Translations under genes and position numbers: made by a program
Shown here: piece by piece, positions 46,709 to 64,000 of the stretch
Position numbering within the stretch: position 1 is the first letter of the stretch
Layout: each line of letters opens with the position of its first letter
The notes under the pieces: generated by a model
Seen by the model: only the letters and a program-made list of their open reading frames with translations
Told to the model about the DNA's origin: nothing
Database searches by the model: none
Origin: Candidatus Fervidifonticultor sextus
GTDB taxonomy: Bacteria; Sysuimicrobiota; Sysuimicrobiia; Sysuimicrobiales; Humicultoraceae
Assembly (NCBI GenBank): GCA_031459875.1
Contig: JAVKHQ010000010.1
Span: 22,281-86,280 of the forward strand
DNA: 64,000 nucleotides
Direction: 5' to 3'

Positions 46709-48427
46709 TCAGAGCGCGTCTGTCCCGGCCGCAATGACCTCGAGGTCGGCCCGCGTGTAGGAACCCAGGCTGCGGAAGTCCAACTCGACGTAGTTCCGAA
46801 TCCACCGCATGGCGATCTTGACCGCTCTGCGGTACCGCTCTTCGGCTTCCTGGTACGCCGCCCGATCCCTGGGAGACCCGGCCGACGCCGCCCGAAGCCG
46901 CGCCAGGATGTCGTCGGTCTCCTCCAGGAGCAGGCGCTTCACCAGGGCCGCATCGTGCACCACAGAGGGATCGGCGGCATCCCTGGCGCGGTGTCGGATC
47001 CGCTGGGCGATCTGCGCCACCGAGATGCGACCCGTGGCCAGATCTTCCATCAGGGCGGGATGCCGGCCCGGCCTGCCGGCCAGGCTGTCGATCCCCTTGG
47101 CCCCGCGGCCGTTCAGCCATCCCTCGAGGTACTCCACGAGCATGCGCGCGTTGCGCCGGGTGCCGTCCACGGTGATCGGACCGTCGGGCACCTGGATGTC
47201 CACCGGGTAGCGATCGAAATCGGTCATCTCGGGTGAAGGCCGCCAGCCTGACGCCCGCAAGCGTTTGAAGGGCTCCGCCGCGGTCTTCATGTGGAAGATG
47301 TGCGCCACCCACGCCCGGACGAATCCCTGGCGGGCCTCCCACTCCTTGTCCGCCCGGATGGCCTCCGCCGCCTGCCGGTTGACCTCGGGGTCGGGATGGG
47401 GCAGCGCCGTGGCCATGCCGCCGATGGGGACGGCGCCGCGCCTGAGGCAGATCGCCACCAACCGCCTGAAGATGTCGGCAAGGAACGGGGTGGTCTTGAT
47501 GTCCACACCGAACCGGTCCGGCCACACCTGGGAAGGATCGGTCATGACGTACTCCAGGATGCTGGCCTTGAGATCCCACCGGGCGGCGTTGAGCCCGGCG
47601 GCGTACGGGCCCAGGGCGTGGAGCATCTCCTCCATCTGGTAGACGGCCGGCAGGGCCTCGATGAGGGGGATGGCGCGAATCACGGCGTCTTTGAGGTGGG
47701 GCAGGTGGGCGCGGCTGGCATCGAAGAGGTCCCGGTAGAAGCGAGCCTCCTCGGCCGATTCCAGCTTGGGGAGGTAGAAGTAGATCCCCTGGCCGCGCTC
47801 GACCTGCGCCCGGCCGGCGTAGAAGAGGGTCAGGGCCGTCCCCAGGATCGCGGCGCAGACGGGGGTCCCGTCCACCGTCACCTCGGGCTCGTCCAGGTGG
47901 AGGCCGCGCTCCCGGTGCATGAAGAAGGGCAGGTCGCCCTCTGCGATCCGGTATGCCTTGCATTTCTCCGGATCGAAGTAGGTCAGTTCGCGCCTGACCG
48001 CCGCCAGGCGGTTGTGTGCGGCGCGCACGGTGTCGATCAGCCGGTGCCCGGCGGAGTCCTCGTCGTCGTCGAGGTCGGCCTCGGCCCGCTCCCCCTCCAG
48101 CCCCGGGTTCAGCGCGTTGATGAACATGCCGGTCACCGAAGCCGGGCCCGAGATCTCGATCCCCGGCCTCTGGAGTTCCTCGGGGACCGGGGGGACCTGC
48201 CAGTCGCCGCGGCTGGCTTGGCTGTCGAAGACCGGGGCGGGCACCACGCGCTCGTGGAGCGCGCGCCCCAACATCGCCGCGCGGCAGGCGCGCAGCGCGC
48301 GGACGCGGGGCGCAAACCGGTCGTGGAGGAGGACCAGATAGTCGAGGAATTCGGGCGTGAAGAGCTCCGCCGCCCCTTCCACCGGGGCGAACCAGACCCG
48401 GGATGCGGCGGGGGTGCGCTCACCCAT
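46709..48427 (-). CDS. aceB: Malate synthase (A-type-like)
   Basis: IEISGP, INALN, DDEDS, RERGLHLDE, YFYLPKLES, LIE, GLNAARWD, GGMA, AWVAH, LMEDLAT; ATG 48427. Confidence 0.85.
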   Translation of the reverse strand: MGERTPAASRVWFAPVEGAAELFTPEFLDYLVLLHDRFAPRVRALRACRAAMLGRALHERVVPAPVFDSQASRGDWQVPPVPEELQRPGIEISGPASVTGMFINALNPGLEGERAEADLDDDEDSAGHRLIDTVRAAHNRLAAVRRELTYFDPEKCKAYRIAEGDLPFFMHRERGLHLDEPEVTVDGTPVCAAILGTALTLFYAGRAQVERGQGIYFYLPKLESAEEARFYRDLFDASRAHLPHLKDAVIRAIPLIEALPAVYQMEEMLHALGPYAAGLNAARWDLKASILEYVMTDPSQVWPDRFGVDIKTTPFLADIFRRLVAICLRRGAVPIGGMATALPHPDPEVNRQAAEAIRADKEWEARQGFVRAWVAHIFHMKTAAEPFKRLRASGWRPSPEMTDFDRYPVDIQVPDGPITVDGTRRNARMLVEYLEGWLNGRGAKGIDSLAGRPGRHPALMEDLATGRISVAQIAQRIRHRARDAADPSVVHDAALVKRLLLEETDDILARLRAASAGSPRDRAAYQEAEERYRRAVKIAMRWIRNYVELDFRSLGSYTRADLEVIAAGTDAL

Positions 48428-48468
48428 GGGGTGTCCCCCAGGCTCTCCTCCAGCGCCCGTCCCGACCG

Positions 48469-50961
48469 TCACGCCTTGATCCGGCTGCCGGACGGGTCGA
48501 AGCGCGGATCGCGCTGTACGGTGGCCTGAATCCGCACCCCGTCCACCTCCACAGCCACCTCGGTCCCCAGGACGGCCAGCCGCACCGGCAGGTACGCGTA
48601 GGCGATGCTCTCCTCCACGAAGTACCCGTACCCTCCGCTGGTCACCCGGCTCACGACCCGGTCGCCCTCGAACACCGGCTCGTTCCCCAGCACGACCCGC
48701 TGCGGGTCCGCCAGCACCAGGCAGCAGAGCCTCCGCTTCAGCCCCTCCGCCTTCTGCCGCAGCAGCGCGTCGCGGCCCTGGAAGTCCCCTTTGTCGAGTT
48801 TGACGCAGAACGCCTGGCCGGACTCGTACGGCGTGTACTCCGGCGTGATGTCCGCGCTCCAGTACCGGTAGCCCTTCTCCAGCCGCAGGGAGTCCACCGC
48901 CCGGTAGCCGACGAGGCGCATGCCCAGCGGCCGGCCCGCCTCCCACAGCGCGTCCCAGAGGCGCAGGGCGTGGTCGGGACGCACGTACAGTTCCCAGCCG
49001 AGCTCGCCGACGTAGGTCACCCGGAGTGCCCGCGCCGGCACGCCGGCTGCCCTGACCTCCTGCCACGTCATGTAGGGGAAGGCCGCATTGGAGAGGTCGT
49101 CCTCGCAGACCTGCTGCAGGATGTCACGCGAGCGGGGTCCCCACACCCCGATGCAGGCCAGTTCCGTGGTGATGTCCCTGGCCACCACCGAGCCGTCGGA
49201 TGGAAGGTGCTTGCGGATCCAGTCCAGGTCGTGGACCCCGAAGGCGCTGCCCGTGACGACCATGAACCGGTCCGGGGCCAGGCGCGTCACCGTCAGGTCG
49301 CACTCGATGCCGCCGCGGGCGTTGAGCATTTGGGTGTAGGTCACGGACCCGGGCGGCCTGTCCATCTCGTTGTCTGTCAGCCACTGCAGGGCGGCCAGCG
49401 CCCCGCGGCCCTCGACCTCGAACTTGGAAAACGAGGTGAAATCGAACAGACCCGCCGTCTCGCGGGTAGCCAGGTGCTCGAGTGCGATCGCCGGGGACCA
49501 GTTGTGCCGCGCCCAGCCCAGCGGCCTCCAGGCTGTGGCGCGCGCCGCCAGGGTGCCGGCCTCGACGCCGCCGGCGGTTGTCGGTCCGTCGCTCCCGGAG
49601 CAGGCCGCCGGGTCGTTGCTGGCGAACCAGTTGGGCCGCTCCCAGCCGCCCTTCTCGCCCAGGACCGCGCCCGCCTCGACGAGCCGGGGATAGACCGGGC
49701 TCAGCCGGAAGCGGCGCGCGGTGTCCCACTCCTCGAACGGCAGGCTCACGGCCCCGTACCGGCGCGCGTAGGCTTCCACCGACCGCTCAATGGTGTGCGC
49801 GGCGTGCGCGTACTGCGGGCCGAACCGGCGGATGTCCATCCGCCAGACGTCCAGGCTCGGCTGGCCGTCCACGATCCACTCGGCCAGCACCCGGCCGATC
49901 CCGCCGCCGGCGGCGATCCCGTAGGCGTTGAACCCGGCGGCGACAAAGAACCCCCGGACGCCGGGCGCTTCGCCCATCATGAACTCGCCGTCGGGCGAAA
50001 ACGCTTCGGGACCGTTGATGATCCTGGAAATCTCCGCGTGCTCGAAGGCCGGGATGCGCCTGGCCGCGTTGCGCACCACCGGTTCGAAAATCGGCCAGTT
50101 GGTCGGCAGCAGCCGGTGGACGAAGTCGTTGGGGACGCCGTCGGTCGACCAGGGCTGGGGCTGCGCCTCGAACCCTCCCACCAGCAGTCCCCGGACCTCC
50201 TCGCGGGCGTAGACGCGCAGGTCCGGGTCACGCACCACGGGAAATTCGGGCCGCACGCCGTCGACGGGCTCGGTCAGCAGGTACTGGTGCTGCATGGGCA
50301 CGATCGGGACGCGTACGCCGACCATGCGGCCGATCCGGTCGGCCCAGATCCCGGCGGCGTTGACCACGACCGGCGTGCGGATCGTCCCGCGGTCGGTCAC
50401 CACCGCGTCGACGCGCCCGTGCTTCACCGTGATGCCAAGCACGGTGGTATTGGTGCAGATCTCCACCCCCCGGCTGCGGGCGCCGCGGGCCATGGCGAAG
50501 GTCACCCCGCTGCCGTCCACGCGGCCATCGGTGGGCATGTAGACGGCGCCCACTAGGTCGCGCTCGCTCAGCAGGGGGAAGAGGGCCACCGCCTCGCGGG
50601 GGCTGAGCACCTCCACGGGCAGTCCGAAGGTTCGGGCCAGGGCGGCCTGGCGCAGGTTCTCCTCCATGCGCAGTGCGCTGGAGGCCAGGCGCAGGCTGCC
50701 GCACGGCCGCCAGTCCGTCTCCTGCCCGGTCTCCCGGGCCAACCGCGCGTACAGGTCGGCGCTGAACATCATGATGCGGGTGAGGCTGAGCGATCCGCGC
50801 AGTTGGCCGACCAGCCCGGCCGCGTGCCAGGTGGAACCGCTGGTGAGTTCGGCCTTCTCCACCAGCACGACGTCCCGCCACCCCAGCAGCGAGAGGTGGT
50901 AGGCGACGCTGCACCCGACGATCCCGCCGCCGATGATGACCGCCTGCGCTTCCGACTTCAT
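48469..50961 (-). CDS. Dimethylglycine/sarcosine dehydrogenase-like FAD oxidoreductase with GcvT (THF-binding) domain, copy 2
   Basis: IIGGGIVG, GSTWHAAG, NGPEAFSPDG, GWERPNWF, TYVGELGWE, SLRLEKGY. Confidence 0.92.
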   Translation of the reverse strand: MKSEAQAVIIGGGIVGCSVAYHLSLLGWRDVVLVEKAELTSGSTWHAAGLVGQLRGSLSLTRIMMFSADLYARLARETGQETDWRPCGSLRLASSALRMEENLRQAALARTFGLPVEVLSPREAVALFPLLSERDLVGAVYMPTDGRVDGSGVTFAMARGARSRGVEICTNTTVLGITVKHGRVDAVVTDRGTIRTPVVVNAAGIWADRIGRMVGVRVPIVPMQHQYLLTEPVDGVRPEFPVVRDPDLRVYAREEVRGLLVGGFEAQPQPWSTDGVPNDFVHRLLPTNWPIFEPVVRNAARRIPAFEHAEISRIINGPEAFSPDGEFMMGEAPGVRGFFVAAGFNAYGIAAGGGIGRVLAEWIVDGQPSLDVWRMDIRRFGPQYAHAAHTIERSVEAYARRYGAVSLPFEEWDTARRFRLSPVYPRLVEAGAVLGEKGGWERPNWFASNDPAACSGSDGPTTAGGVEAGTLAARATAWRPLGWARHNWSPAIALEHLATRETAGLFDFTSFSKFEVEGRGALAALQWLTDNEMDRPPGSVTYTQMLNARGGIECDLTVTRLAPDRFMVVTGSAFGVHDLDWIRKHLPSDGSVVARDITTELACIGVWGPRSRDILQQVCEDDLSNAAFPYMTWQEVRAAGVPARALRVTYVGELGWELYVRPDHALRLWDALWEAGRPLGMRLVGYRAVDSLRLEKGYRYWSADITPEYTPYESGQAFCVKLDKGDFQGRDALLRQKAEGLKRRLCCLVLADPQRVVLGNEPVFEGDRVVSRVTSGGYGYFVEESIAYAYLPVRLAVLGTEVAVEVDGVRIQATVQRDPRFDPSGSRIKA

Positions 50962-50962
50962 C

Positions 50963-52264
50963 TCAACCTCCAGACCGGGCAGACACCCGCCGGACGTCCT
51001 CCCGCAGCGCGTCGCGGGCAGCGTCCAGGAAGCGTCCCAGGTCCGCCTCGGTGTGCGCCAGCGAGAGGTACAGCTTGGTGGACATGGGGTTCAGGAAGAT
51101 CCCCCGTCGGAACAGCCCCAGCAGGAAGGCCCGGGCCCTCACCCGGTCGGCGCGGGCGGCCGTGCGGTAGTCGGTCACCTCTCGATCGGTGAACACCACC
51201 GCGGCCAGCGGACCGTCGCCCTGGACGTGGGCCGCCACCCCCTCTTCGCCCAGCACCGCCCGCAGACCGCTGCGGAGGGCAGCCCCCAGGGCGAAGAGGC
51301 GGTCGTAGGTGCCAGGCTTCCGCAACTCGGCGAGGACGGTCAGTCCGGCAACCGCGGACAGCGGGTTGGCACCCAGCGAGGAGGCGAACCACACGTAGCG
51401 GTCCTCGCCCAGCCGGTCCTCGCGGACCAGGTCGAGGATCTCGGCCCGCCCGACCACGGCGCCGATCGGCAGCCCGCCCCCCAGCGCCTTGCCCAGAGCG
51501 GCCAGGTCGGGGACGACGCCGTAGTAGGCCTGCGCGCCGCCGTAGGCCAGGCGGAAGCCGGTCACGACCTCATCGAACACGAGCAGCGCCCCAATCCCAT
51601 TCGCCAGCTCCCGCAGCCCCTCCAGGAAGCCCGGGCGCGGAGGAGTGCAGCGGTGGAGCGGCTCCACGATGATCGCGGCCACCTCGTGGCCGTGGGTCTG
51701 CAGGATCCGTCCGGTTGTGTCCAGGTCGTTGTAGGGCGCGACGAGGATGTTCTCGATGACGGCGGGGGGCAGGCCGGCCGAGGTGGGCTCGGCCCGGGGA
51801 AAGTCCAGCAGCCGCCTCGGGAACAGGCTGACGGTGCCCACTTCGTTGGCGCCGTGGTAGGCCCCCTCGAACTTGAGGACCTTGGGGCGTCCGGTATGCG
51901 CTCGGGCCAGCCGGACGGCGTAAGCCGTGGCCTCGGTGCCCGAGGCACAGAACCGCACCCGCTCGGCGCAGGCCACCGCCCGCACCAGTTCCTCGGCCAG
52001 TTCAAGCGAAGGTTCCGTGATGTACGCGAAGTTGGACCCCAGCCCCATGCGGGTCCGGACGGCTTCCACGACGGCGGGGTGGGCGTGGCCGAGCAGCACC
52101 GACCCCCAGCCCATGGTGAAGTCGGTGAAGCGGCGTCCCTGCGAGTCCCACACCGCCGCCTCTTCTCCCCGGACCAGGACCGTCACCAGGTCGGGCGGCA
52201 GGTCGTACTCGCCCGGCGAGCCTGCCGGGAAGACAGCCAGGGCGCGTTCGGCGGGGGTCGGCAC
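50963..52264 (-). CDS. Class III aminotransferase, GSA-aminomutase-like subgroup
   Basis: SGTEAT, KFEGAYHG, FDEVVTGFR, GKALGGGLP; lacks the HemL PGGVNSPVR motif. Confidence 0.85.
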   Translation of the reverse strand: MPTPAERALAVFPAGSPGEYDLPPDLVTVLVRGEEAAVWDSQGRRFTDFTMGWGSVLLGHAHPAVVEAVRTRMGLGSNFAYITEPSLELAEELVRAVACAERVRFCASGTEATAYAVRLARAHTGRPKVLKFEGAYHGANEVGTVSLFPRRLLDFPRAEPTSAGLPPAVIENILVAPYNDLDTTGRILQTHGHEVAAIIVEPLHRCTPPRPGFLEGLRELANGIGALLVFDEVVTGFRLAYGGAQAYYGVVPDLAALGKALGGGLPIGAVVGRAEILDLVREDRLGEDRYVWFASSLGANPLSAVAGLTVLAELRKPGTYDRLFALGAALRSGLRAVLGEEGVAAHVQGDGPLAAVVFTDREVTDYRTAARADRVRARAFLLGLFRRGIFLNPMSTKLYLSLAHTEADLGRFLDAARDALREDVRRVSARSGG

Positions 52265-52270
52265 GAGGGA

Positions 52271-54766
52271 TCAGGCCTTGATCCGGCTGTGGGTGGGATC
52301 GTAGCGCGGCTCGCGCTGGACGGTGGCCCCGAGGCGCTCGCCGTCCACCACGACGGCGAGCTCGGTGCCGACGCCCGCGAGCTCGACTGGCAGGTAGGCG
52401 TAGGCGATGCTCTCGCCCACCGTGTACCCGTAGCCTCCGCTGGTCACCCGGCCGACCGCCCGATCGCCGTCGAGCACCGGTTCGTTCCCCAGCGCCACCC
52501 GCTGCGGGTCGGACAGCACGAGGCAGCAGAGCCTCTGGCGGACCCCCTCGGCCTTCTGCCGCAGCAGCGCCTCGCGGCCCTGGAAGTCCCCCTTGTCCAG
52601 CTTGACGCAGAAGGCCTGCCCCGATTCGTAGGGGGTGTACTCCGGCGTGATGTCCACGCCCCAGTAGCGGTAGCCCTTCTCCAGCCGCAGGGAGTCCACC
52701 GCGCGATATCCGACCGGGCGCAGCCCCAGCGGCCGCCCCGCCTCCCACAGCGCGTCCCACACCGTCAGGCCCGACGCCATCGGGACGTAGAACTCCCACC
52801 CCAGTTCCCCCACGTAGGTCACGCGCTGCGCGCGCACGGGGACGCCCGCCACCCGGATCTCCCGGGAGGTCATGTAGGGGAAGGCCGTATTGGACACGTC
52901 GTCGTCGCAGACCTGCTGCAGGATCTGGCGCGCCTTTGGACCCCACAGGCCGATGCAGCACCGCTCGGCCGAAACGTCCCGGATGGCGACGGACCCGTCG
53001 TCCGGGAGGTGCCGCCGGATCCAGTCCAGGTCGTGGACGCCGAAGGCGCTCCCGGTGATGATCATGAACCGGTCCGGGGCCAGCCGCGTCACCGTGAGGT
53101 CGCACTCGATGCCGCCGCGGGCGTTGAGCATCTGCGTGTAGGTCACGGTCCCCGGCGGCCTGTCCATCTGGTTGTCGGTCAGCCACTGCAGGGCGGCCAG
53201 CGCCCCGGGGCCTTCGACCTCGAACTTGGAAAACGAGGTGAAGTCGAACAGGCCGGCCGCCTCCCGCACCGCGCGGTGCTCGACCCCGATGGCCGGCGAC
53301 CAGTTGAGCCGCGCCCAGCCCAGGGGGGTCCAGTCCCGGGGCCCGACAGCGGCCGTCTCGCCGGGTCCCGCGCCCCGCGTGGCCGCCGACCCGGGATTGT
53401 GTGGGTTGCCCGCGGCCGCTGCCGGTGCGTTGCTCGCAAACCAGTTCGGCCGCTCCCAGCCGCCCTTCTCCCCGAAGACCGCGCCCATGGCCGCCAGGCG
53501 GGGGTACGGCGGACTGACCTTCAGGCCCCGCGCTGATTCGCGCTCCTCGAACGGGGGATGGAGCCAGTAGTTCTTCTCGTAGGTCTCCAGCGCCCGGGCC
53601 GCCGCGTAGGCCCGATCGGCGTAGTGGGGCTGGAAGCGGCGGATGTCCATGCGCCACACGTCCATGTCCGGCGCGCCCTCGGTGATCCACTCGGCCATCA
53701 CCTTCCCGACGCCGCCCGCGCAGGCGATGCCGGGAGAACCGCCGGCGACGAAGAACCCCCGCACCCCGGGCGCCTCGCCCAGGACCAGATCGCCGTCGGG
53801 CGTGAAGCCGTCGGGCCCGTTGATGAGTTTGTAGACGCCGGCCCGCTCCACGGCCGGGAGGCGGGCGGTGATGTTCTTCGCCACCTGCTCGAACTTGTCC
53901 CAGTTGGGCGCCAGCAGCCGGTGGTGGAAGTCGGCGGGGATGCCGTCCAGCCCGAAGGGGATCGGACTGGCCTCGTACCAGCCGATGCACAGGCCGCCGA
54001 CTTCCTCGCGGAAGTAGATCAGCAGATCCGGATCGCGGACCACCGGCATGCGGCGGTGTGTCCCCTCGATGGGGCCGGTCAGGAGGTACTGGTGCTCGAT
54101 GCCGACCACCGGCACCGCGACCCCGGCCATGGCGCCGATGTGCGCGGCCCAGATCCCGGCGCAGTTCACCACGACGTCGGTGCGAATCGTGCCGCGGGTG
54201 GTGGTGACCGCGCGCACCCGGCCGTCGCGGACGGTGATGCCCGTGACCTCCGTCTCGGTATAGATCTCCGCCCCCTGGTTCCTGGCCCCCCTGGCCAAGG
54301 CAAAGGTCAGCCCGCTGGGATCCACGCTGCCGTCGGTGGGCAGGTAGGCCGCGCCCAGCAGGCCCCGGTCGCTCATCACCGGGAAGAGTTCAACCGCTTC
54401 CTTCGGCGTCAGCAGCTCCATGGGCAGCCCGAAGGTCCGGGCCGTGGCCGCGTGGCGTTTGAGTTCCAGCATGCGCTCCGGGGTCGAAGCCAGCCGCAGG
54501 CTCCCGGTCTCGCGCCAGTCGGGGTCGTGGCCGGTCTCGGCCCCGAGCCTGCGGTACAGTTCGACGCTGTACATGATCATGCGGGTCAGGGTAACCGAGC
54601 CGCGGAGCTGGCCCACCAGGCCCGCCGCATGGAATGTCGCGCCGCCGGTCAGGCCGCCCTTCTCCACCAGGACGATGTCGCGCCAGCCCATGCTGGCGAG
54701 ATGGTAAGCGATGCTGCACCCGTAGACGCCGCCCCCGATGATGACGGCCTGCGCGCAAGACTTCAC
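52271..54766 (-). CDS. Dimethylglycine/sarcosine dehydrogenase-like FAD oxidoreductase with GcvT domain, copy 1
   Basis: IIGGGVYG, GATFHAAG, NGPDGFTPDG, GWERPNWF, TYVGELGWE, SLRLEKGY; GGAGGAG RBS. Confidence 0.92.
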   Translation of the reverse strand: MKSCAQAVIIGGGVYGCSIAYHLASMGWRDIVLVEKGGLTGGATFHAAGLVGQLRGSVTLTRMIMYSVELYRRLGAETGHDPDWRETGSLRLASTPERMLELKRHAATARTFGLPMELLTPKEAVELFPVMSDRGLLGAAYLPTDGSVDPSGLTFALARGARNQGAEIYTETEVTGITVRDGRVRAVTTTRGTIRTDVVVNCAGIWAAHIGAMAGVAVPVVGIEHQYLLTGPIEGTHRRMPVVRDPDLLIYFREEVGGLCIGWYEASPIPFGLDGIPADFHHRLLAPNWDKFEQVAKNITARLPAVERAGVYKLINGPDGFTPDGDLVLGEAPGVRGFFVAGGSPGIACAGGVGKVMAEWITEGAPDMDVWRMDIRRFQPHYADRAYAAARALETYEKNYWLHPPFEERESARGLKVSPPYPRLAAMGAVFGEKGGWERPNWFASNAPAAAAGNPHNPGSAATRGAGPGETAAVGPRDWTPLGWARLNWSPAIGVEHRAVREAAGLFDFTSFSKFEVEGPGALAALQWLTDNQMDRPPGTVTYTQMLNARGGIECDLTVTRLAPDRFMIITGSAFGVHDLDWIRRHLPDDGSVAIRDVSAERCCIGLWGPKARQILQQVCDDDVSNTAFPYMTSREIRVAGVPVRAQRVTYVGELGWEFYVPMASGLTVWDALWEAGRPLGLRPVGYRAVDSLRLEKGYRYWGVDITPEYTPYESGQAFCVKLDKGDFQGREALLRQKAEGVRQRLCCLVLSDPQRVALGNEPVLDGDRAVGRVTSGGYGYTVGESIAYAYLPVELAGVGTELAVVVDGERLGATVQREPRYDPTHSRIKA

Positions 54767-54956
54767 CGGTGCTCCTCCAGATCAGCCGACGCCCTGAGAA
54801 GATTCGAGCCGCGGGTCAGGGCGTCCCTGCCGGCGGCGGGACGCGCAGCCAGCGATGTTGAAGTCTGCGGAAACGTCCACCCTTCCCATGGGAGGCAGCA
54901 CGCTCCCTTCCCGGTGAGCAACGCCTTTCTGCCTCCGACTGTGATAGAGTGGGACT

Positions 54957-56261: not shown

Positions 56262-56336
56262 CCGCCCCGGCCCCCCAGGACTGGCTATTGTCTGCCTCCT
56301 GCTCTCCTCCGTACGGTACGATTCAGGTGACGGAGC

Positions 56337-57191
56337 ATGGGAGGATCGGCCACGCTGATCGTCGGTGAACTCATCAACTCGACCCGCAAGCAGATCCAGC
56401 CGCTGCTGGAATCGCGCGATGCCGGAGCCATCGTCGACCTCGCCCGCCGGCAGGTCGAGGCCGGCGCGCACCTGGTGGACGTCAACTGCGCCACCCTCAT
56501 GGAGGACGAGGTCCCGGCCATGGAGTGGGCGGTGCGGACCATCCAGGGCGCCCTGGACGTCCGCCTGTCCATCGACAGCCCCAACCCCAAGGCGCTGCGG
56601 CGGGGCCTGGAGGTGCACCGGGGCAGGGCCCTCCTGGATTCCATCAACCTCGAGCAGGACCGCTGGAAGGACCTCATCCCGGTGATCAGGGAGTTCCGGC
56701 CCGAGGTCGTGGCTCTGTGCATGGACGACCAGGGGATTCCCTCCACGGCCTCCGGCAAACTGGAGTGTGCCGCGCGGTTGATCGACGGGCTCACCGACGC
56801 CGGCGTGCCGCCCGAGGACATCCTGGTGGACCCGCTGCTGTTCCCCATCGCCACGGACAGCCGGTGCGTCGTGGTGTTCCTGGAGGCGCTGGACCTGATC
56901 AAGGAACGGTATCCCGGCGTGCGGACCATCTGCGGGCTGAGCAACGTCTCCTTCGGGCTGCCCCACCGTGCCCAGATCAACCAGGTCTTCCTCGTCCTCT
57001 GCCTGGCCCACGGGATGGACGCGTTCATCCTCGATCCGCTGGACCGGCGCCTGATGGCCAACCTGACCACGGCCCAGATGCTGCTGGGGCAGGACGAGTA
57101 CTGTCGCCGCTACCTGGCGGCCGTGCGGGCCGGGACGTTCAACTTCGCGACGCCGCGGGCGGGCGGAGGAGACCCGCGGTCGTCCGGCTGA
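56337..57191 (+). CDS. Methyltetrahydrofolate:corrinoid methyltransferase (pterin-binding, AcsE/MetH folate domain)
   Basis: IVGELINSTRK, QVEAGA..VDVN, LSIDSPNP, DSIN, VDPL, CGLSNVSFGLP.R..IN. Confidence 0.9.
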   Translation: MGGSATLIVGELINSTRKQIQPLLESRDAGAIVDLARRQVEAGAHLVDVNCATLMEDEVPAMEWAVRTIQGALDVRLSIDSPNPKALRRGLEVHRGRALLDSINLEQDRWKDLIPVIREFRPEVVALCMDDQGIPSTASGKLECAARLIDGLTDAGVPPEDILVDPLLFPIATDSRCVVVFLEALDLIKERYPGVRTICGLSNVSFGLPHRAQINQVFLVLCLAHGMDAFILDPLDRRLMANLTTAQMLLGQDEYCRRYLAAVRAGTFNFATPRAGGGDPRSSG

Positions 57192-57194
57192 ACC

Positions 57195-57851
57195 ATGATC
57201 GAAGAGTTGACTCTCCCCCGGCCGCGCGTGGACCCCGACCTCATCCTGCGGTTGCAGAAGTACCGGGCGCCCGACAAGGTCTCCCCGGCCGTCAGAGAGA
57301 CGGCCCGCAGGATGGCCTCGCTGGCCGAGGCGCTGGTGGAGCCGCGGGGGTGGATGCGGCGCGAAGCGGTCGCCGCCGTGGAGGCCGACGGCCGCGTGCG
57401 GCTCGCGGGCGGCATCGAGTTCTCCAGCCGCGCCCTGGCCCGCACACTGCGGGACGCTGCGGAAGCGGTCCTCGTCATCCTTACCATTGGACCCGCCCTC
57501 GAACGGCATGCGCAGGACCTCGTCGAGGCCGAGCAGCCGGCAGAGGGACTGCTGCTGGACACCGCCGGGTGGGCGGCGCTGGACGCGCTCGTCAAAGACC
57601 TGCGGGCTCGGCTGCGGGCCGAGGTCTCCCCGCTGCGTCTGACAGGACGCCTGGCGCCGGGATTCGCCGACTGGCCGCTGGAGCAGCAGCGCGTCCTGTT
57701 CTCCGCGTTCTCGGGGGGCCGCCTGGGGGTGGAGTTGACCGGATCATGCGTGATGCTGCCGCGCAAGTCCATCTCGGGGATCTACGGCCTCGTCCCCGCC
57801 ACGTGCCGCCGGGACGCCGTGCTCCCTGATCGCGGGGCGGCGAGCCCGTGA
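57195..57851 (+). CDS. Stand-alone B12-dependent methionine synthase activation domain-like protein
   Basis: LTIGPALE, LLDTAG, RLAPGFADWPLEQQ, GVELT.SC.MLPRKSISGI. Confidence 0.85.
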   Translation: MIEELTLPRPRVDPDLILRLQKYRAPDKVSPAVRETARRMASLAEALVEPRGWMRREAVAAVEADGRVRLAGGIEFSSRALARTLRDAAEAVLVILTIGPALERHAQDLVEAEQPAEGLLLDTAGWAALDALVKDLRARLRAEVSPLRLTGRLAPGFADWPLEQQRVLFSAFSGGRLGVELTGSCVMLPRKSISGIYGLVPATCRRDAVLPDRGAASP

Positions 57852-59701
57852 CCGGCGGGACCGTCACCGTGACGTTCGCCGCGAAGGGGCGCGCGGTCTC
57901 GGTCCCGGCGGGCACGACCGTGCTCCAGGCCGCGCAGCAGGCGGGGTGCAGCATCACGGCCACGTGCGGCGCGCGCGGGCGCTGCCGGAGCTGCCGCGTG
58001 CAGATCGTCGGCGGGAGCGTGCCCCCAGCGGGGCTCGCCGACCGCATCCAGCTCGGCGACGACGAGGTAGGGGAGCGCTACCGTCTGGCCTGCCAGGCCG
58101 AGGTCTGGGACGACCTGACGGTCCTGGTGGCGCCGGTCTTCGAGGAGGCGGCCTTTCAGATCCTGGCAGAGACGCGGGCGCTGCGCTCGGCGGCGGGCTT
58201 CATCCTGGACTCGGGCGTGGTCAAGACCCATCTCGTCCCCTCGCCCCCGGCCAGCGAGGAACATCCGGCATCGGACCTTGAGGCCCTGCTGCGTCACCTT
58301 GACCGCGAAGTCGGCGATGTGCCCCTCGACGTGCTCCGGCGCATCCCGGGTACGCTGCGGACCGGATCGTCCGGCCTGACCGCCGTCCTCTTCGACCGCA
58401 CGCTGCTGGCCGTCGAGCCCGGCGACACGCGCACCGAAGCCTACGGGATGGCGTTCGACATCGGGACCACCACGGTCGTCGGCTACCTGGTGGACCTCTG
58501 GAGCGGCACGGTGGCGGCGACGGCCGCCGGCCTCAACCCCCAGTCGGCCTTCGGCGGCGACCTGATGTCGCGCATCGCCTTCGCGCAGGAAGATCCGGCC
58601 AACGTGCGCCGGCTCCACACCCGGATCCTCCAGCTGCTGAATGGACAGATCGAAGAGGTCTGCAACCGGGCGGGAGTGGACCGGGAGCGCATCTACAAGG
58701 TCGTGGTGGTGGGCAACACCGCCATGCACCACCTGTTCTTGGGCATCGATCCCACCTACGTGGGCCAGGCGCCGTATGCGCCCGGCGTCCGGCGCGGCCT
58801 CCGGGTGGCCGCGTCCGACGTGGGACTGCGGCTGCGCCCACCGACCCCCGTGTGCCTGCTCCCAATCGTGGCGGGCTTCGTGGGCGCCGACGCCGTAGGC
58901 ATGGTGCTGTCCACCCGCCTCGACGAGAGCCGCGCGCCCCGCATCGCCGCCGACATCGGTACGAACGGCGAGATGGTCATGGCATCCCCCGATGGGCTGC
59001 TCGCCTGCTCGGCCCCTGCCGGCCCGGCGCTGGAAGGCGCGCAACTCCGCTGCGGCATGCGCGCCGCCCGCGGCGCCATCGACCAGGTCCGCATCGACGG
59101 GGACGTCTGCTACCACGTGATCGGCTCGGGGGCCCCGCTGGGCGTGTGCGGGTCCGGCATTCTGGACGCGATCGCCGGGCTGCTCGACGCCGGCCTCCTG
59201 GACGCCGGCGGCCGGCTCCATCCCGAGCCGCCGGCCTCGGCGCCGGACGCCCTGCGACGCCGGGTGGTCACACTCGCCGACGGGCGGCCGGCGTTCGTCC
59301 TGGCGGACGCGTCCGAGAGCGCGACGGGGCAGGCCATCGTCCTGACCCAGGCGGACATCCGGCAGGTCCAGCTGGCCAAGGGCGCAATCCGCAGCGGGAT
59401 CGCCATGCTCCTGCACCTGACGCAGACCCCCGCCGACCGGCTCGCCGAGGTGATGCTGGCGGGCGGGTTCGGCAACTACCTGAACATCCGCAGCGCCGTC
59501 CGGGTCGGCCTGATCCCTCCCCTGCCGGTCGACCGGGTCACCTATGTGGGGAACGCCGCAGGGCTGGGCGCGCAGATGGCGTTGGTCTCGGAAACGGAGC
59601 GGGGTCGGGCGGAGGCGCTGGCCCGCCGCATCCGGCACGTCTCGCTGGCCACGCACCCGGCGTTCCAGGAGGTCTTCCTGGACGCCCTGCGATTTGGATG
59701 A
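57848..59701 (+). CDS. ASKHA-type reductive activator of corrinoid proteins (RACo/RamA-like) with N-terminal 2Fe-2S domain
   Basis: CGARGRCRSC...RLACQ; DIGTTTV, NPQ..FGGDLMSRI, GFVGAD, DIGTNGE, AGPALEG, GVCGSG, QLAKGAI, LAGGFG. Confidence 0.92.
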   Translation: MTGGTVTVTFAAKGRAVSVPAGTTVLQAAQQAGCSITATCGARGRCRSCRVQIVGGSVPPAGLADRIQLGDDEVGERYRLACQAEVWDDLTVLVAPVFEEAAFQILAETRALRSAAGFILDSGVVKTHLVPSPPASEEHPASDLEALLRHLDREVGDVPLDVLRRIPGTLRTGSSGLTAVLFDRTLLAVEPGDTRTEAYGMAFDIGTTTVVGYLVDLWSGTVAATAAGLNPQSAFGGDLMSRIAFAQEDPANVRRLHTRILQLLNGQIEEVCNRAGVDRERIYKVVVVGNTAMHHLFLGIDPTYVGQAPYAPGVRRGLRVAASDVGLRLRPPTPVCLLPIVAGFVGADAVGMVLSTRLDESRAPRIAADIGTNGEMVMASPDGLLACSAPAGPALEGAQLRCGMRAARGAIDQVRIDGDVCYHVIGSGAPLGVCGSGILDAIAGLLDAGLLDAGGRLHPEPPASAPDALRRRVVTLADGRPAFVLADASESATGQAIVLTQADIRQVQLAKGAIRSGIAMLLHLTQTPADRLAEVMLAGGFGNYLNIRSAVRVGLIPPLPVDRVTYVGNAAGLGAQMALVSETERGRAEALARRIRHVSLATHPAFQEVFLDALRFG

Positions 59702-59715
59702 GGAGGAGCGCACGC

Positions 59716-60633
59716 ATGGAGGCGCGGGGCAGGGAACTGCTGGAACGCCTGAGGACCGAGGTGCTGATCCTCGACGGCGCCATGGGCACGATGTTGTTCG
59801 AGGCCGGGCTCCAGGACGGCGCCTGCCCCGAACTGTGGAACGAGACCCGCCCCGAGGTGGTCGCCGGCATCCACCGGGCCTACCTGGAGGCCGGGGCGGA
59901 CATTGTCGAGACCAACACCTTCGGCGGCACCCGGCTCAAGCTGGCGCCCTACGAACTGCAGGCCCGGGCGCGGGATCTCAATGTCCTCGGCGCGCGCCTG
60001 GCCCGGTCGGTCTGCCCGCCGGGCAGGTACGTGGCGGGCTCCATCGGGCCGACCGGGCACCTGCCGGACACGCTGGCCGCGATGGGCGACGTGTCCCTGG
60101 ACGAGATGCGCGCCGCCTTCGCCGAGCAGGCCCTCGCACTCGCCGAGGGCGGCGTGGATTTCTTCGCGGTGGAGACGATGATGGTCCCCGACGAGGCCGT
60201 CGCCGCCATCCGCGCGGCCAAGGAGGCGACCGGACTGCCGGTGATGGCCACCATGTTCTTCCAGTACAACCGGCAGAAGCAGCGGGACCGCACGCTGTGG
60301 GGCTCTTCGCCGGCCGACGTGGCGCGGCTGTTGCTCGACGCCGGCGCGGACGTCGTCGGCTGCAACTGTGGAGAAGGCGGACCGGCCCGCGCCGCGGTGA
60401 TCATCCGGGAGATGCGGGAGGTGACCGCCGGCTTCCTGGCCGCCTACCCGAACGCCGGGATGCCCAGGGTCATCGACGACCGGACGGTCTACGACCTCGC
60501 GCCCGACGACATGGCAGCGGGCTACCCCGCGATCCTCGACGCCGGGGCCAACATCGTCGGCGCCTGCTGCGGCAGCACCCCCGAGCACATCCGGCGCATC
60601 GCCGAGGTGGTGCGCAGGCGCCGGACCCCGTAG
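59716..60633 (+). CDS. Homocysteine S-methyltransferase (MetH homocysteine-binding domain)
   Basis: LDGAMGTML, AGADIVETNTFG, AGSIGPTG, GCNC, YPNAGMP, GACCGSTPEHI with Zn-ligand Cys residues intact; AGGAGG RBS. Confidence 0.92.
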   Translation: MEARGRELLERLRTEVLILDGAMGTMLFEAGLQDGACPELWNETRPEVVAGIHRAYLEAGADIVETNTFGGTRLKLAPYELQARARDLNVLGARLARSVCPPGRYVAGSIGPTGHLPDTLAAMGDVSLDEMRAAFAEQALALAEGGVDFFAVETMMVPDEAVAAIRAAKEATGLPVMATMFFQYNRQKQRDRTLWGSSPADVARLLLDAGADVVGCNCGEGGPARAAVIIREMREVTAGFLAAYPNAGMPRVIDDRTVYDLAPDDMAAGYPAILDAGANIVGACCGSTPEHIRRIAEVVRRRRTP

Positions 60634-60651
60634 GCGCGAAAGGAGCAGGCC

Positions 60652-62025
60652 ATGGTGAGTTTCCTGGAGATCTGCCGGCGGGCGACGACCGGGCCCATCG
60701 TCGCCCCCGACGACTTCGACATGCAGCGCTTCGTCCCGAGCCTGCAGAAGGCCATCAAGCAACACGGCCTGAGCGCCCCGCCCAAAGACGCCGTCGTCCC
60801 CTGGGACGATGATCTGGCGGACCGCATCTTCCTGGCCGCCAAGGACTTCCTGGTGGACACCGGGTGCTACTGCCCGGACACCAACCGCGTGATCACCTTC
60901 ACGCGGGAAGAACTCGACGAGGCCATCCACCTGGCCCCCCGGCAGTGCCCGCTGGGCGAGGGGAAGGAGGCCAGATGCATGCGCCCGCGCCGGCCCGAAG
61001 ATCCCCAGCTCCCCTGGTGCCACGTCGGGGGCGGCATCCCGGTCTCCTCCGACGAGATCGCTTCGGCGGTGGTGGAGGGCTACGCGCGGATCCCCCACGC
61101 CGACTCCATGAGCATCCCGGCGCTGACCCGGATCCGCGGGATGCCGGTGCAGGCCGGCGCGCCCACGGAGATCTTCGCGGCCATCCAGTCGGTGCGGCTG
61201 GGCCGCGAGTCCATGCGGCGCGCGGGCCGGCCGGGCCTGCCCATCATCAACCTGCTCTCCACCTCGGCCTCGCCCATGGGCGTGCTGGCGGTCACCAATG
61301 CGGAATACGGCTTACGCCCCTCCGACGGGTGGTTGATCGTGTCGCTGTCGGAGATGAAACTGGACTACAACGTGATGAACAAGACGGCCGCCGTCCTGTC
61401 GTACGGCGGCAACGTGGGATTCGCCGCTGGCGCCATCTACGGCGGCTTCGCCGGCGGGGTCATCGGCTCGGCCGTGCTCAACGCCGCCTACATCATGGCC
61501 GGACCGCTGCTGGTGGGCGCCACCTACCACCTGCTGTACTCGCTGCACATCCAGCAGTCCAACTCCACATCGCGCGAGATGCTGACCAGCGTGGCCCTGG
61601 GCTGCCAGGCAGTCAGCCGGAACATGCCGTTCCCCTACTTCGACCTGGGCTACGCCGCAGCGGGTACGGCCACGCCGCAACTCTACGACGAGACCGCCGC
61701 GCGGATCATCACCGATGTGGCCAGCGGCGCCAACATCGAGACCGTGCATCCGGCCAAGGGCGTCCTCGTGGACAACTACAGCCCCATGGAGATGCGCTTC
61801 GCCTGCGAGGTGGCCCATGCGGCCGCCGGGATGAAGCGGCAGGACGCCAACGAGATCGTCAAGGCGCTGCTGGCCCGGTACGAACCACACCTCAGCGACC
61901 CGCCGCAGGGGTCCCGGTTCCAGGACTGCTACAACCTGGATACCCTGGAACCCACCCCGCAGCACTACGAGGTGTACGCACGGGCCAAGGAAGACCTGCG
62001 CCGACTCGGGCTGCCGCTGCGGTAG
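60652..62025 (+). CDS. mtmB: Monomethylamine:corrinoid methyltransferase (MtmB) family protein, non-pyrrolysine
   Basis: RATTGP, DDDLADRIF.AA, YCPDTNRVI.FT.EE, AGRPG, EMKLD, GGFAGG, PME, AGMKR.DANEIV, G.RFQDCY....EPT; 457 aa with no internal stop. Confidence 0.85.
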   Translation: MVSFLEICRRATTGPIVAPDDFDMQRFVPSLQKAIKQHGLSAPPKDAVVPWDDDLADRIFLAAKDFLVDTGCYCPDTNRVITFTREELDEAIHLAPRQCPLGEGKEARCMRPRRPEDPQLPWCHVGGGIPVSSDEIASAVVEGYARIPHADSMSIPALTRIRGMPVQAGAPTEIFAAIQSVRLGRESMRRAGRPGLPIINLLSTSASPMGVLAVTNAEYGLRPSDGWLIVSLSEMKLDYNVMNKTAAVLSYGGNVGFAAGAIYGGFAGGVIGSAVLNAAYIMAGPLLVGATYHLLYSLHIQQSNSTSREMLTSVALGCQAVSRNMPFPYFDLGYAAAGTATPQLYDETAARIITDVASGANIETVHPAKGVLVDNYSPMEMRFACEVAHAAAGMKRQDANEIVKALLARYEPHLSDPPQGSRFQDCYNLDTLEPTPQHYEVYARAKEDLRRLGLPLR

Positions 62026-62064
62026 GGCGCCCGACCGCAGGAACGTTTCGGGGGAGGCGTAGCG

Positions 62065-62736
62065 ATGGATGAGACCGCGATCCTCGAGGGCCTGAGGCAG
62101 GCTGTCCTGGACTACGACGCCGAGGCCGGCGCGCGCCTGGTCCGCGAGGGCCTGGAGGCCGGCATCCCTCCCCTCAGGTTGATCGACGACGGCCTCTCGC
62201 GCGGCATCGCCGTCATCGGCGAGAAGTTCCAGGCGATGGAGATCTTCCTGCCCGAGCTCATGATGGCCGCCAAGGTCTTCCTGGAGGCGATGAAGCTCCT
62301 GGAGCCGGCCATCCTGGCGATGGGCGAGGGGCGGCAGAAGCGGGGGGTCGCCGTCATCGGCACGGTCAAAGGCGACGTCCACTCCATCGGCAAGGACCTG
62401 TTCGGCACGCTGCTCAAGGTGGCGGGCTTCGAGGTCCACAACCTGGGCGTCAACGTGCACCCCGGGAAGTTCGTGGAGAAGGCGGAGGAGACCGGCGCCC
62501 AGATCGTGGGGCTGTCGGCCCTGATGACCACCACGATGCCGTCCATGCGGGAGGTGATCGAGTTCTTCGAGGCCCGGGGCATCCGGGAGCAGCACACCAT
62601 CATGGTCGGCGGCGGCCCGGTCACCGAGGGCTTCGCCCGGAAGATCCAGGCGGACGGCTACGGCCAGACGGCGCAGGACGGGGTGAACCTGGCGATCCAG
62701 TTCGTGGAGCAGATGCGCGCGGCCGGACGCGCCTGA
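62065..62736 (+). CDS. Cobalamin-binding corrinoid protein (MtmC/MttC-like; MetH cap + B12 domain)
   Basis: EIFLPELMMAA, GTVKGDVHSIGK (DxHxxG), GLSALMTTT, MVGGGP. Confidence 0.93.
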   Translation: MDETAILEGLRQAVLDYDAEAGARLVREGLEAGIPPLRLIDDGLSRGIAVIGEKFQAMEIFLPELMMAAKVFLEAMKLLEPAILAMGEGRQKRGVAVIGTVKGDVHSIGKDLFGTLLKVAGFEVHNLGVNVHPGKFVEKAEETGAQIVGLSALMTTTMPSMREVIEFFEARGIREQHTIMVGGGPVTEGFARKIQADGYGQTAQDGVNLAIQFVEQMRAAGRA

Positions 62737-62750
62737 TTAGCCAGGCCGCC

Positions 62751-63083
62751 ATGGCCGAGTACCGGATCACCTACTGGCGGCAGATCCCCTCGCAGGTTGA
62801 GGCGTTCGACGGGGCCGAGCGGGTCCGCCGTCCGCTCGACCGCCGGTTCCAGGAGTTGATTGATGCCGTAGCGATGCGGGACGGCGCGACCGGCATGGAG
62901 GCGTATCTGGAGGGGTGGAGGGTCGGTCCCCGCCTCGCGAGGGACGGCACGGCCCAGGGGGTGGCCGACGCGGTGGCGGGAGAACTGGAAGAGCAATTCG
63001 ATGTCGTCCGGAGGGCCGTGCTCAGCACACCGGACTCGCCGAGGAGTCCGGAGGGGTCAGGGCGAGGCTCAACGGCGCCGTGA
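62751..63083 (+). CDS. 'Virulence factor'-family small protein (often found with split MetH)
   Basis: ITYWRQIPSQV...L..RFQELIDAVAMR.G....AYL.GW. Confidence 0.7.
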   Translation: MAEYRITYWRQIPSQVEAFDGAERVRRPLDRRFQELIDAVAMRDGATGMEAYLEGWRVGPRLARDGTAQGVADAVAGELEEQFDVVRRAVLSTPDSPRSPEGSGRGSTAP

Positions 63084-63126: not shown

Positions 63127-64000
63127 TCAGCCCTGCAGGGTCAGGGCGCGCGGGCTGTCGGGAGGAAACCGGCAGACGACGCGGGCACCGACGGGGAACG
63201 CGCCGGCGCGGATACTCTGGACGTCGGCGGCCACCTCCCCGGCGCCGGTCGTAATCCTGACCCGCGTGATGGCCCCCAGAAAGGAGTGGGACACCACCCG
63301 ACCTGCCAGCGCACCCGCCGGCGGCTCGGCGTCCGGTGCGGCCTGCAGTTCGATGGCCTCGGGCCGCAGGAGCACCATCACCCGCTCGCCCCGGGGACGC
63401 CCCCGCACGGCGTGGACCTCCAGGCGCTCCCCGCGGCAGTCCACGAAGCCCCGACCGCCGTCGGTCACCTCGCCCACGAGCCGGTTCATGGTGCCGACGA
63501 ACTCGGCCACAAAGGGCGTGGCCGGCGCGCCGTAGATCTCCGGCGCCGTGCCCAGTTGTTCGATGCGGCCGGCCGACATGACCGCGATCCGGTCGGAGAT
63601 GGAGAGGGCCTCCTCCTGGTCGTGGGTGACGTAGAGGGTGGTGATCCCCAGGCTGGTCTGGATGCGCCGGATCTCCTCGCGCAACTGCACGCGCACGCGG
63701 GCATCCAGCGCCGAGAGGGGTTCATCGAGCAGCAGCACCCGCGGCTCGATGGCCAGCGCCCGGGCGAGCGCCACGCGCTGCTGCTGACCGCCCGAGAGCT
63801 GGTGCGGGTAGCGGGTGCGGGCGTGGGAGAGTCCGATCAACTCGAAGAGCCGATCCAGCCGCCGCGCCCGCTCGTCGGGCGCCACCCTGCGCAACCGCAG
63901 GCCGAACGCCACGTTTTCCTCGGCGGTCATGTTGGGGAACAGGCTGTAGGCCTGGAAGACCATCCCCATGTGGCGCCGGCTGGCCGGCAGGGTGGTGATG
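63127..64000 (-). CDS. ABC transporter ATP-binding protein (PotA/FbpC-like); 5' end outside window
   Basis: GMVFQAYSLFPNM, LSGGQQQR, DEPLSALD, TOBE; frame stays open to the window edge. Confidence 0.92.
   Translation of the reverse strand, partial: ITTLPASRRHMGMVFQAYSLFPNMTAEENVAFGLRLRRVAPDERARRLDRLFELIGLSHARTRYPHQLSGGQQQRVALARALAIEPRVLLLDEPLSALDARVRVQLREEIRRIQTSLGITTLYVTHDQEEALSISDRIAVMSAGRIEQLGTAPEIYGAPATPFVAEFVGTMNRLVGEVTDGGRGFVDCRGERLEVHAVRGRPRGERVMVLLRPEAIELQAAPDAEPPAGALAGRVVSHSFLGAITRVRITTGAGEVAADVQSIRAGAFPVGARVVCRFPPDSPRALTLQG

Follow-up and report, generated by a model that had tools for sequence, protein, structure and literature searches.

Pyrrolysine-free homologs of the corrinoid-dependent methyltransferase MtmB have a first demonstrated function in MtqB, the partner of MtqC in Methanococcoides methylutens, which acts on choline and tetramethylammonium and is presented as the sole characterised member among homologs whose functions are otherwise described as unknown (PMC13044021). 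Here we analyse 64,000 nucleotides of Candidatus Fervidifonticultor sextus DNA (GenBank assembly GCA_031459875.1, contig JAVKHQ010000010.1, positions 22,281 to 86,280; hereafter the window), in which a gene of this family lies in an island with flavoenzymes of the dimethylglycine dehydrogenase (DMGDH) type and with genes for the uptake and transamination of 2-aminoethylphosphonate (AEP), among them the transaminase gene phnW. Judging from gene identities and neighbourhoods, we see about an even chance that the island is an N-demethylation module for trimethyl-, dimethyl- and monomethyl-AEP, handing AEP to the adjoining PhnW. The module would be a new variant that combines corrinoid methyltransferase systems with AEP catabolism.

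Like MtqB/MtqC, the window system pairs a pyrrolysine-free MtmB-family protein with an adjacent corrinoid protein, and both methyltransferases presumably act on a methylated ammonium compound, but the acceptor of MtqB/MtqC is coenzyme M, whereas that of the window system, whose host is bacterial, would be tetrahydrofolate (THF) or homocysteine (Hcy). We set the two side by side by description rather than by sequence; the window MtmB has its own long branch and clade-specific substitutions. MtgB/MtgC and the other pyrrolysine-free demethylases of the MttB family follow the same logic of methyltransferase, corrinoid protein, methyl-THF methyltransferase and reductive activase, but the window methyltransferase is of the other family, and a genome-wide search for the MttB/MtgB family (PF06253) returned no match here and a match in the control genome.

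On the phosphonate side, PhnW cannot use N-methyl-AEP, a common natural product (Zangelmi et al., PMC10590968), and in the described PhnW-PhnX path the flavin adenine dinucleotide-dependent oxidases PbfB, PbfC and PbfD convert N-methyl-AEP to phosphonoacetaldehyde (PMC10590968, PMC10574752). That path and the window have in common an AEP transporter, PhnW and accessory enzymes that widen the substrate range, but PbfB/C/D oxidise the ethyl side, whereas the window enzymes would strip the methyl group and keep AEP; the window flavoenzymes also carry a GcvT folate domain. The oxidative TmpA/TmpB route has the same proposed substrate, trimethyl-AEP (PMC10574752), but it needs O2 and yields glycine betaine and phosphate, whereas the window route would remove methyl groups and leave the C-P bond for later enzymes. 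PbfB/C/D and TmpAB are the only entries for methylated AEP in the available text of a 2023 review of phosphonate degradation, in which neither "demethyl" nor "methyltransferase" occurs (PMC10574752), and our literature search, which covered main texts and, for some sources, parts of them, returned no report linking MtmB or corrinoid systems with PhnW or phosphonate. The nearest relatives of the flavoenzymes, dimethylglycine oxidase (DMGO), DMGDH and sarcosine dehydrogenase (SarDH; structures 1PJ5, 5L46 and 4PAA), share their four-domain architecture, but the genomic partner of the window flavoenzymes is PhnW, not betaine genes.

A corrinoid arm and a flavoenzyme arm beside PhnW

The window forms the terminal 64 kb of a contig of 86 kb, which belongs to the metagenome-assembled genome (MAG) of an uncultured hot-spring bacterium; the MAG measures 3.05 Mb, is 96% complete and has about 70% G+C (G000; C7, C9, C14 and C48 below are other contigs of the same genome). 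Its MtmB homolog is 99% identical to that of a Candidatus Fervidifonticultor MAG (Humicultoraceae, Sysuimicrobiota/CSP1-3). The paper describing the phylum reports Sysuimicrobiota bacteria as facultative anaerobes, and its main text never mentions methylamine, corrinoid, phosphonate, betaine or dimethylglycine (PMC11604079).

The right arm of the island (Table 1) contains the parts of a corrinoid-dependent methyltransferase system, namely a corrinoid protein with the motif DVHSIG, a RACo-type activase, and pterin-binding and Hcy modules. The methyltransferase itself matches the MtmB family (PF05369) at 300.9 bits over residues 5-454 (cut-off 25) and is the only MtmB/MttB-family gene in the whole genome. 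Its open reading frame (ORF) runs for 457 amino acids with no in-frame stop, and Ile199 aligns with Pyl202 of Methanosarcina barkeri MtmB (1L2Q), the position at which pyrrolysine-dependent MtmB has an in-frame UAG. A full-length MetH, with Hcy, pterin, B12 and activation modules in one polypeptide, was not found in the genome; the modules are separate genes, and the window corrinoid protein is the sole MetH-like B12 module.

The left arm begins with the first of two flavoenzymes, both of which have the four-domain architecture of DMGDH, DMGO and SarDH and match 1PJ5, 5L46 and 4PAA over their full length at 513-545 bits; the highest of these scores is that of DMGDH-a against Arthrobacter dimethylglycine oxidase (1PJ5, residues 2-830). 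None of the curated equivalog models matched either flavoenzyme above its cut-off, and by active-site comparison a carboxylate substrate would be hard to tell from a phosphonate. The aminotransferase encoded between them falls short of the HemL equivalog model (TIGR00713), and a second HemL-like copy, 37% identical to it, lies on contig C9; the window enzyme is a HemL paralog and not the housekeeping HemL. Its orthologs (55-61% identity) adjoin MtmB homologs at four loci (L029, L045, L046, L051).

Convergent with the left arm, and ending 29 bp from it, is a run of four genes encoding the AEP transporter PhnS2-PhnT2-PhnU2 and PhnW, each above the cut-off of its equivalog model. In PhnU2 the profile match begins at residue 340 of the ORF at 42861-45515. 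A PbfA ortholog (712 bits, cut-off 525) is encoded elsewhere in the genome, on contig C7.

The original prediction for this DNA, made from the sequence alone, had described the span 46709..63083, and every gene that it named in the two arms is present. That span leaves out the strictest co-occurring partner, the PhnS2T2U2-PhnW run at 41529-46680. The prediction was right that the MtmB homolog is pyrrolysine-free. It had drawn two packed operons diverging from one regulator: the packing (gaps and overlaps of -4 to 75 bp inside each arm) and the divergence hold, with the correction that the right arm itself begins with the regulator and that the arms diverge from a 190-bp spacer. The gene that it called an activation domain is likewise present and conserved, though its family match is weak (21.9 bits against a cut-off of 25).

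Table 1. Positions of the island's features in the window and of MtmB-free modules on contigs of three other genomes
Feature	Position	Strand	Remarks
PhnS2, AEP ABC transporter substrate-binding protein	41529..42620	+	TIGR03261 461 bits, cut-off 392.75
PhnT2, ATPase of AEP transporter	42637..43815	+	TIGR03265 506.5 bits, cut-off 457.7
PhnU2, fused permease	43878..45515 (start approximate)	+	TIGR03262 795.8 bits, cut-off 593.25
PhnW, 2-aminoethylphosphonate:pyruvate transaminase	45544..46680	+	NF010006 543 bits (cut-off 296); TIGR02326 495.5 bits (cut-off 400.8)
Malate-synthase-like protein	46709..48427	-	Last gene of left arm; PF01274 171.7 bits
DMGDH/DMGO-type flavoenzyme b (DMGDH-b)	48469..50961	-	DAO + FAO_M + GCV_T + GCV_T_C
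HemL-like class III aminotransferase	50963..52264	-	TIGR00713 341.7 bits, under cut-off 527.3
DMGDH/DMGO-type flavoenzyme a (DMGDH-a)	52271..54766	-	First gene of left arm; DAO + FAO_M + GCV_T + GCV_T_C
Divergent spacer between arms	54767..54956	.	190 bp, read directly
LuxR/GerE-type regulator with receiver-like domain	54957..56261	+	First gene of right arm
Methyl-THF:corrinoid methyltransferase (pterin-binding)	56337..57191	+	NF005719 314 bits, cut-off 259
MetH-activation-like protein	57195..57851	+	PF02965/Met_synt_B12 21.9 bits, below cut-off 25 (weak)
RACo-type reductive activase (2Fe-2S + ASKHA)	57848..59701	+	PF14574, PF17651, PF17650, PF00111
Homocysteine S-methyltransferase module	59698..60633	+	PF02574 248 bits
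Pyrrolysine-free MtmB homolog, predicted substrate:corrinoid methyltransferase	60652..62025	+	PF05369
Cognate corrinoid protein	62065..62736	+	PF02310 + PF02607; DxHxxG motif = DVHSIG
Small PF13769 protein	62751..63083	+	PF13769 52.7 bits
"Type A" second ABC transporter ATPase	63127..64000, cut by contig end	-	Profile matches
MtmB-free modules	G021 C2 3760-19078 (L109); G035 C146 (L110); G037 C69 (L111)		G021 module beside gcvT, gcvPA, gcvPB

PhnW accompanies the MtmB homolog within the order

The gene identities, the conserved linkage and the co-occurrence are observations. Among the 41 genomes of our within-order survey, the MtmB homolog occurs in nine, all of one family and with 87-99% identity, and PhnW scores above its cut-off in 11: in all nine MtmB-bearing genomes and in 2 of the 32 others (G017, G027). 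The linkage is also physical, PhnW lying less than 5 kb from DMGDH-b in eight genomes of five genera (G000, G002, G004, G009, G011, G012, G017, G020), with varying genes between them; the DMGDH-b orthologs that adjoin PhnW in relatives are 74-95% identical to that of the window. In G041, PhnW is on the same side of MtmB at a distance of about 21 kb.

Comparison of these loci separates a core from accessory genes. G004, a genome of the same genus, has the right arm followed by an extra methylenetetrahydrofolate reductase gene, the regulator, DMGDH-a, the aminotransferase, DMGDH-b and then directly PhnW-PhnU2-PhnT2-PhnS2, and its locus contains no malate synthase gene. In G012, from another genus, the locus has neither the aminotransferase nor a malate synthase gene, and the type A transporter stands between DMGDH-b and PhnW. 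A close malate-synthase ortholog is present in only two of the nine MtmB-bearing genomes (G000, G002), and a homolog in G019 is 37% identical and lies on another contig; the malate-synthase-like gene joined the island late, in a single species pair, and does not belong to the core.

The pairing of MtmB with DMGDH-type genes spans at least five genera of the family and has a reduced form in Methylomirabilota, which bears out the general logic that had been proposed for the locus, a corrinoid demethylase and two DMGDH-type demethylases feeding THF. DMGDH-like genes are more widespread and occur in 16 of the 41 genomes, a count that includes two unpublished genomes, G013 and G022, on which no other result depends.

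Phosphonate genes beside MtmB homologs in other phyla

Methylomirabilota MAGs hold MtmB orthologs of 82-85% identity, in the order Hcy module, PhnS2-like transporter, one DMGDH-like gene, MtmB, corrinoid protein, activation-like protein and RACo; the binding protein of the transporter shares 57% identity with a further PhnS2-like protein encoded by G004. Across 61 related genomes sampled on the Methylomirabilota side (one of them, G070, unpublished), an AEP transaminase above the TIGR03301 cut-off occurs in four of the five genomes with an MtmB ortholog and in 9 of the 56 without one.

Beyond these orthologs there is an identity gap below 50%, followed by hundreds of homologs. Our set of MtmB neighbourhoods comprises 69 loci, 55 of them with distant homologs (39-50% identity), and 18 of these 55 have PhnW, PbfA or PhnX by tblastn (16 of 39 among loci of at least 10 kb). 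When proteins from the distant loci were tested against family cut-offs, all seven PhnW candidates passed as equivalogs, two of five haloacid dehalogenase-type proteins passed as PhnX (L034, L069), and five of ten class III proteins passed as PbfA. A typical Chloroflexota architecture sets MttB, two MtmB and a corrinoid protein beside PhnW, PbfA or PhnX, and a typical Planctomycetota one sets two MtmB beside PhnW; in these architectures the number of methyltransferases equals the number of methyl groups in trimethyl- or dimethyl-AEP.

Two Chloroflexota clusters connect the distant homologs with the window through transport. In L034 (PhnW-PhnX-MtmB-MtmB-corrinoid protein) and L069 (MtmB-PhnW-PhnX) a type A transporter is the sole transporter, and its binding protein, permeases and ATPase are 50-52%, 39-54% and about 50% identical, respectively, to those of the window genome. 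On the MtmB tree, a label for phosphonate neighbours needs seven changes, against a mean of 16.1 for shuffled labels, and none of 500 shuffles was as low; one clade of 20 archaeal and Dehalococcoidia rows has no phosphonate neighbours.

A proposed route from methylated AEP to PhnW

The substrate, the order of steps and the allotment of methyl groups to enzymes are what we infer from this arrangement. The methylated phosphonate would be taken up by the second, type A, ABC transporter, and the MtmB homolog would transfer one methyl group, presumably that of the quaternary form, onto the Co(I) corrinoid protein, which RACo would hold in the reduced state. The pterin-binding methyltransferase would then hand the methyl to THF, or the Hcy module would hand it to homocysteine. 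The two DMGDH-type flavoenzymes would oxidise the remaining N-methyls, passing C1 units to THF through their GcvT domains, and PhnW, perhaps together with the HemL-like aminotransferase, would turn AEP into phosphonoacetaldehyde. A quaternary nitrogen cannot be oxidised by flavin amine dehydrogenases; given this chemistry and the lack of an MttB in the genome, we assign the first methyl of trimethyl-AEP to the MtmB homolog and the rest to the flavoenzymes. Alternatively, the B12 and flavin enzymes would be anoxic and oxic substitutes for each other.

Weighing the substrate

Several observations weigh against methylated AEP as the substrate. The closest solved relatives of both flavoenzymes act on dimethylglycine. 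Three genomes (G021, G035, G037) have DMGDH-like genes, a type A transporter and the kinase gene described below without MtmB and without PhnW; PbfA was not found in G021 and G035 either, and the G021 module adjoins gcvT and gcvP. Since these genomes carry it without MtmB and PhnW, the core of flavoenzymes, transporter and kinase can work without the B12 arm. The Methylomirabilota MtmB loci have no adjacent PhnW, and an AEP transaminase was not found in G050, one of the five MtmB-ortholog genomes. The window clade of MtmB forms a long branch (0.78) whose join to the phosphonate-linked groups is supported at 34 only, and its 14 members agree without exception on 25 substitutions in alignment columns that every other group conserves, including W312T, C304N, P297S, P261A, Y266F and Y438H; on account of the long branch and these substitutions, the substrate of the window MtmB may differ from that of the distant homologs. 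PhnX was not found in the 96%-complete genome, where the best TIGR01422 match scores 28.4 bits (cut-off 220). Finally, a set of neighbouring genes plays no part in the methyl-AEP model. Beyond the binding protein (at 45847-47073) and two permeases that fit the type A ATPase, which sit at the end of contig C14, this contig encodes a choline/ethanolamine-kinase-like protein (PF01633, PF01636), a major facilitator superfamily (MFS) transporter, a CehA/McbA-like hydrolase, an aldehyde dehydrogenase resembling betaine aldehyde dehydrogenase and an OpuAC-type transporter. Because G012 and G004 flank the B12 arm with the same set, the window contig and C14 probably abut in the genome.

These neighbours are better suited to a demethylation module for choline, dimethylethanolamine and monomethylethanolamine, or for the corresponding phosphate esters (phosphocholine, for example), compounds isosteric with methylated AEPs; the kinase would phosphorylate the free bases, and the AEP genes would adjoin by virtue of look-alike head groups. 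We hold this explanation to be unlikely, though it accounts for several facts. MtqB, the one pyrrolysine-free MtmB with a known substrate, acts on choline; the kinase-like gene, MFS transporter and betaine-aldehyde-dehydrogenase-like gene are kept beside the B12 arm in three genomes (G000, on C14; G004; G012), with the OpuAC-type transporter adjoining in G000; and the kinase, the type A transporter and DMGDH-like modules occur together without PhnW. Weak kinase homologs (32-36% identity) also occur at both Spirochaetota loci, L080 and L083; in the tree, two MtmB copies stand beside the window clade, and one of them is from L083. A choline series leaves unaccounted for, however, both the occurrence of PhnW in every MtmB-bearing genome of the order and the type A transporter as sole transporter of the two PhnW-PhnX clusters. 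The best family match of the kinase is guanitoxin N-oxide kinase, under its cut-off, so that its role as a choline kinase is putative, and the 69 MtmB loci include no Methanococcoides or Methanosarcina record.

The original prediction ran from glycine betaine to dimethylglycine by the MtmB homolog, to sarcosine and glycine by the two flavoenzymes, to glyoxylate by the aminotransferase and to malate by malate synthase. Its general logic stands, and its substrate and end steps do not fit; as a whole we consider the path improbable. The full-length matches of the flavoenzymes to dimethylglycine oxidase and dehydrogenase favour it, as do the second-best match of the Hcy module, betaine-homocysteine methyltransferase (215 bits, where the model requires 338), the glycine-cleavage genes beside the G021 module, the OpuAC-type transporter near the G000 island and the malate synthase gene 41 bp after DMGDH-b there. 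Against this, the close malate synthase ortholog is confined to two of the nine genomes and absent from the G004 and G012 loci, and the aminotransferase is missing from G012-type loci and resembles HemL rather than a known glycine:glyoxylate type; linkage of the pyrrolysine-free MtmB is conserved for the DMGDH genes and not for malate synthase. The betaine:corrinoid methyltransferases characterised so far are of the MttB family in the sources available to us (PMC13044021, PMC13080624), although the wider statement that all characterised corrinoid quaternary-amine demethylases are MttB proteins is outdated by MtqB, an MtmB homolog (PMC13044021). The path also leaves the strict linkage to PhnW unaccounted for. 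The same prediction had allowed for another N-methylated compound and had named N-methyl-AEP, and this has proved the better lead.

A further possibility, which we think very unlikely, is that the right arm serves chiefly as a cobalamin-dependent methionine synthase split over several genes, the MtmB homolog being a side entry and the left arm and AEP genes mere neighbours within a region for scavenging nitrogen. Each of the four MetH modules does have a gene of its own, the genome has the single MetH-like B12 module noted above, and glutamine synthetase and glutamate-synthase-like genes lie upstream; yet the arm is present in just 9 of the 41 related genomes, from which we conclude that it is not housekeeping. 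It always accompanies the MtmB homolog, in Sysuimicrobiota together with DMGDH genes and PhnW, and in Methylomirabilota a DMGDH-like gene lies directly upstream of MtmB on the same strand.

Other features of the island and its genome

The regulator that opens the right arm matches GerE at 60.9 bits and a receiver domain at 29.5 bits, slightly below the cut-off of 30.2, has a 225-aa N-terminal part without an assigned domain, and is kept at the same position in five loci (L016, L017, L018, L021, L028). The MetH-activation-like protein is conserved with 58-93% identity in every clade locus that reaches that far. It is encoded side by side with RACo, both are kept in Methylomirabilota, and two reactivation devices for one corrinoid system are unusual. 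Among the loci compared, the small PF13769 protein is restricted to Sysuimicrobiota. A scan of 46000-64000 for consensus promoters and terminators gave no promoters and five terminator-like sites, not above shuffles.

For the malate-synthase-like protein we place the start at ATG 48427, the listed 785-aa ORF running over into the upstream gene. It scores 290.1 bits against malate synthase A (TIGR01344), under the cut-off of 594.5, passes for the Pfam TIM-barrel and C-terminal domains, and has malate synthase A structures 3CUX and 3CUZ as closest solved relatives. A glyoxylate shunt is not supported, because a search for isocitrate lyase gave only two methylisocitrate-lyase-like proteins, both under their cut-offs.

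The stretch is contained in four sequencing datasets of a single hot-spring study, three of DNA and one of RNA. The RNA library gives short contigs (150-270 bases, 95-99% alike) that lie on PhnW, the malate-synthase-like gene, DMGDH-a, RACo/Hcy, MtmB and MtmB/corrinoid protein; DNA carry-over is possible and the contigs give no transcript level, and we do not count them as expression or co-induction.

On contig C7 (27673-32006; L086 7673-12006), the PbfA ortholog lies beside an acylating aldehyde dehydrogenase, a citryl-CoA-lyase-like protein and an HD-domain protein. Of known enzymes, SauS, which acts on sulfoacetaldehyde, is the one that the dehydrogenase resembles most, although its 503 bits fall short of the cut-off of 600. 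The grouping recurs in G004 (L014 16880-19971), and the dehydrogenase and lyase-like pair stands beside PhnW or PbfA in nine distant loci (L030, L037, L046, L051, L052, L054, L063, L064, L072). PhnX is in none of these nine, and the pair is in none of the five loci with PhnX. The pair may provide an alternative fate for phosphonoacetaldehyde via a CoA ester; in the literature available to us "phosphonoacetyl-CoA" appears in a biosynthesis context only. The C7 dehydrogenase had no match in G015, G017, G021, G035 and G037, a result that carries no weight as an absence.

Upstream of PhnS2, on the minus strand at 30585-40882, are genes for a type I glutamine synthetase, two large glutamate-synthase-like proteins (glutamine amidotransferase + GXGXG, and a flavin mononucleotide domain), a short-chain dehydrogenase/reductase and a GCS2-type carboxylate-amine ligase. 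The DMGDH and transporter modules of G037, G035 and G017 likewise have GCS2- or GlnA-like genes beside them, which hints at gamma-glutamylation or assimilation of a released amine. A second PhnS2T2U2 set, 75-95% identical to that of the window, lies on the 14-kb contig C48 (2310-6873; L088) without PhnW and could represent either a gene duplication or strain variation within the bin. Elsewhere in the window, 24681-27987 holds two ORFs of 563 and 536 aa on opposite strands with a strong coding signal and no Pfam or NCBIfam match, and 21776-24907 encodes a 1043-aa protein in which an adenylate/guanylate cyclase domain is joined to an AAA ATPase and to TPR repeats.

Significance

Methylated aminophosphonates are common natural products outside the reach of PhnW. 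Of the two earlier routes for methylated AEP, TmpAB requires O2 and PbfB/C/D take the monomethyl form only. More tentatively than for the island itself, and with real doubt, we suggest a joint picture in which it encodes a complete, O2-free and C1-conserving route from trimethyl-AEP to AEP, a neofunctionalised MtmB taking the quaternary methyl and two folate-coupled flavoenzymes the next two. The same enzymes, with the kinase, would work on isosteric phospho-bases from phosphocholine down to phosphoethanolamine, the reverse of phospho-base methylation, and a large share of the bacterial pyrrolysine-free MtmB proteins that lack an assigned function would be aminophosphonate N-demethylases, filling a gap in the phosphonate cycle of anoxic habitats.

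By joining a corrinoid system to folate-coupled flavoenzymes, this facultative anaerobe from a little-studied phylum, Sysuimicrobiota, offers a compact and testable set of genes, for which methylated-AEP substrates have already been synthesised by others (PMC10590968). If the demethylation route is correct, many pyrrolysine-free MtmB homologs, among which MtqB alone has a demonstrated function so far, would gain one, and facultative and strict anaerobes could draw phosphorus, nitrogen and C1 units from methylated aminophosphonates.

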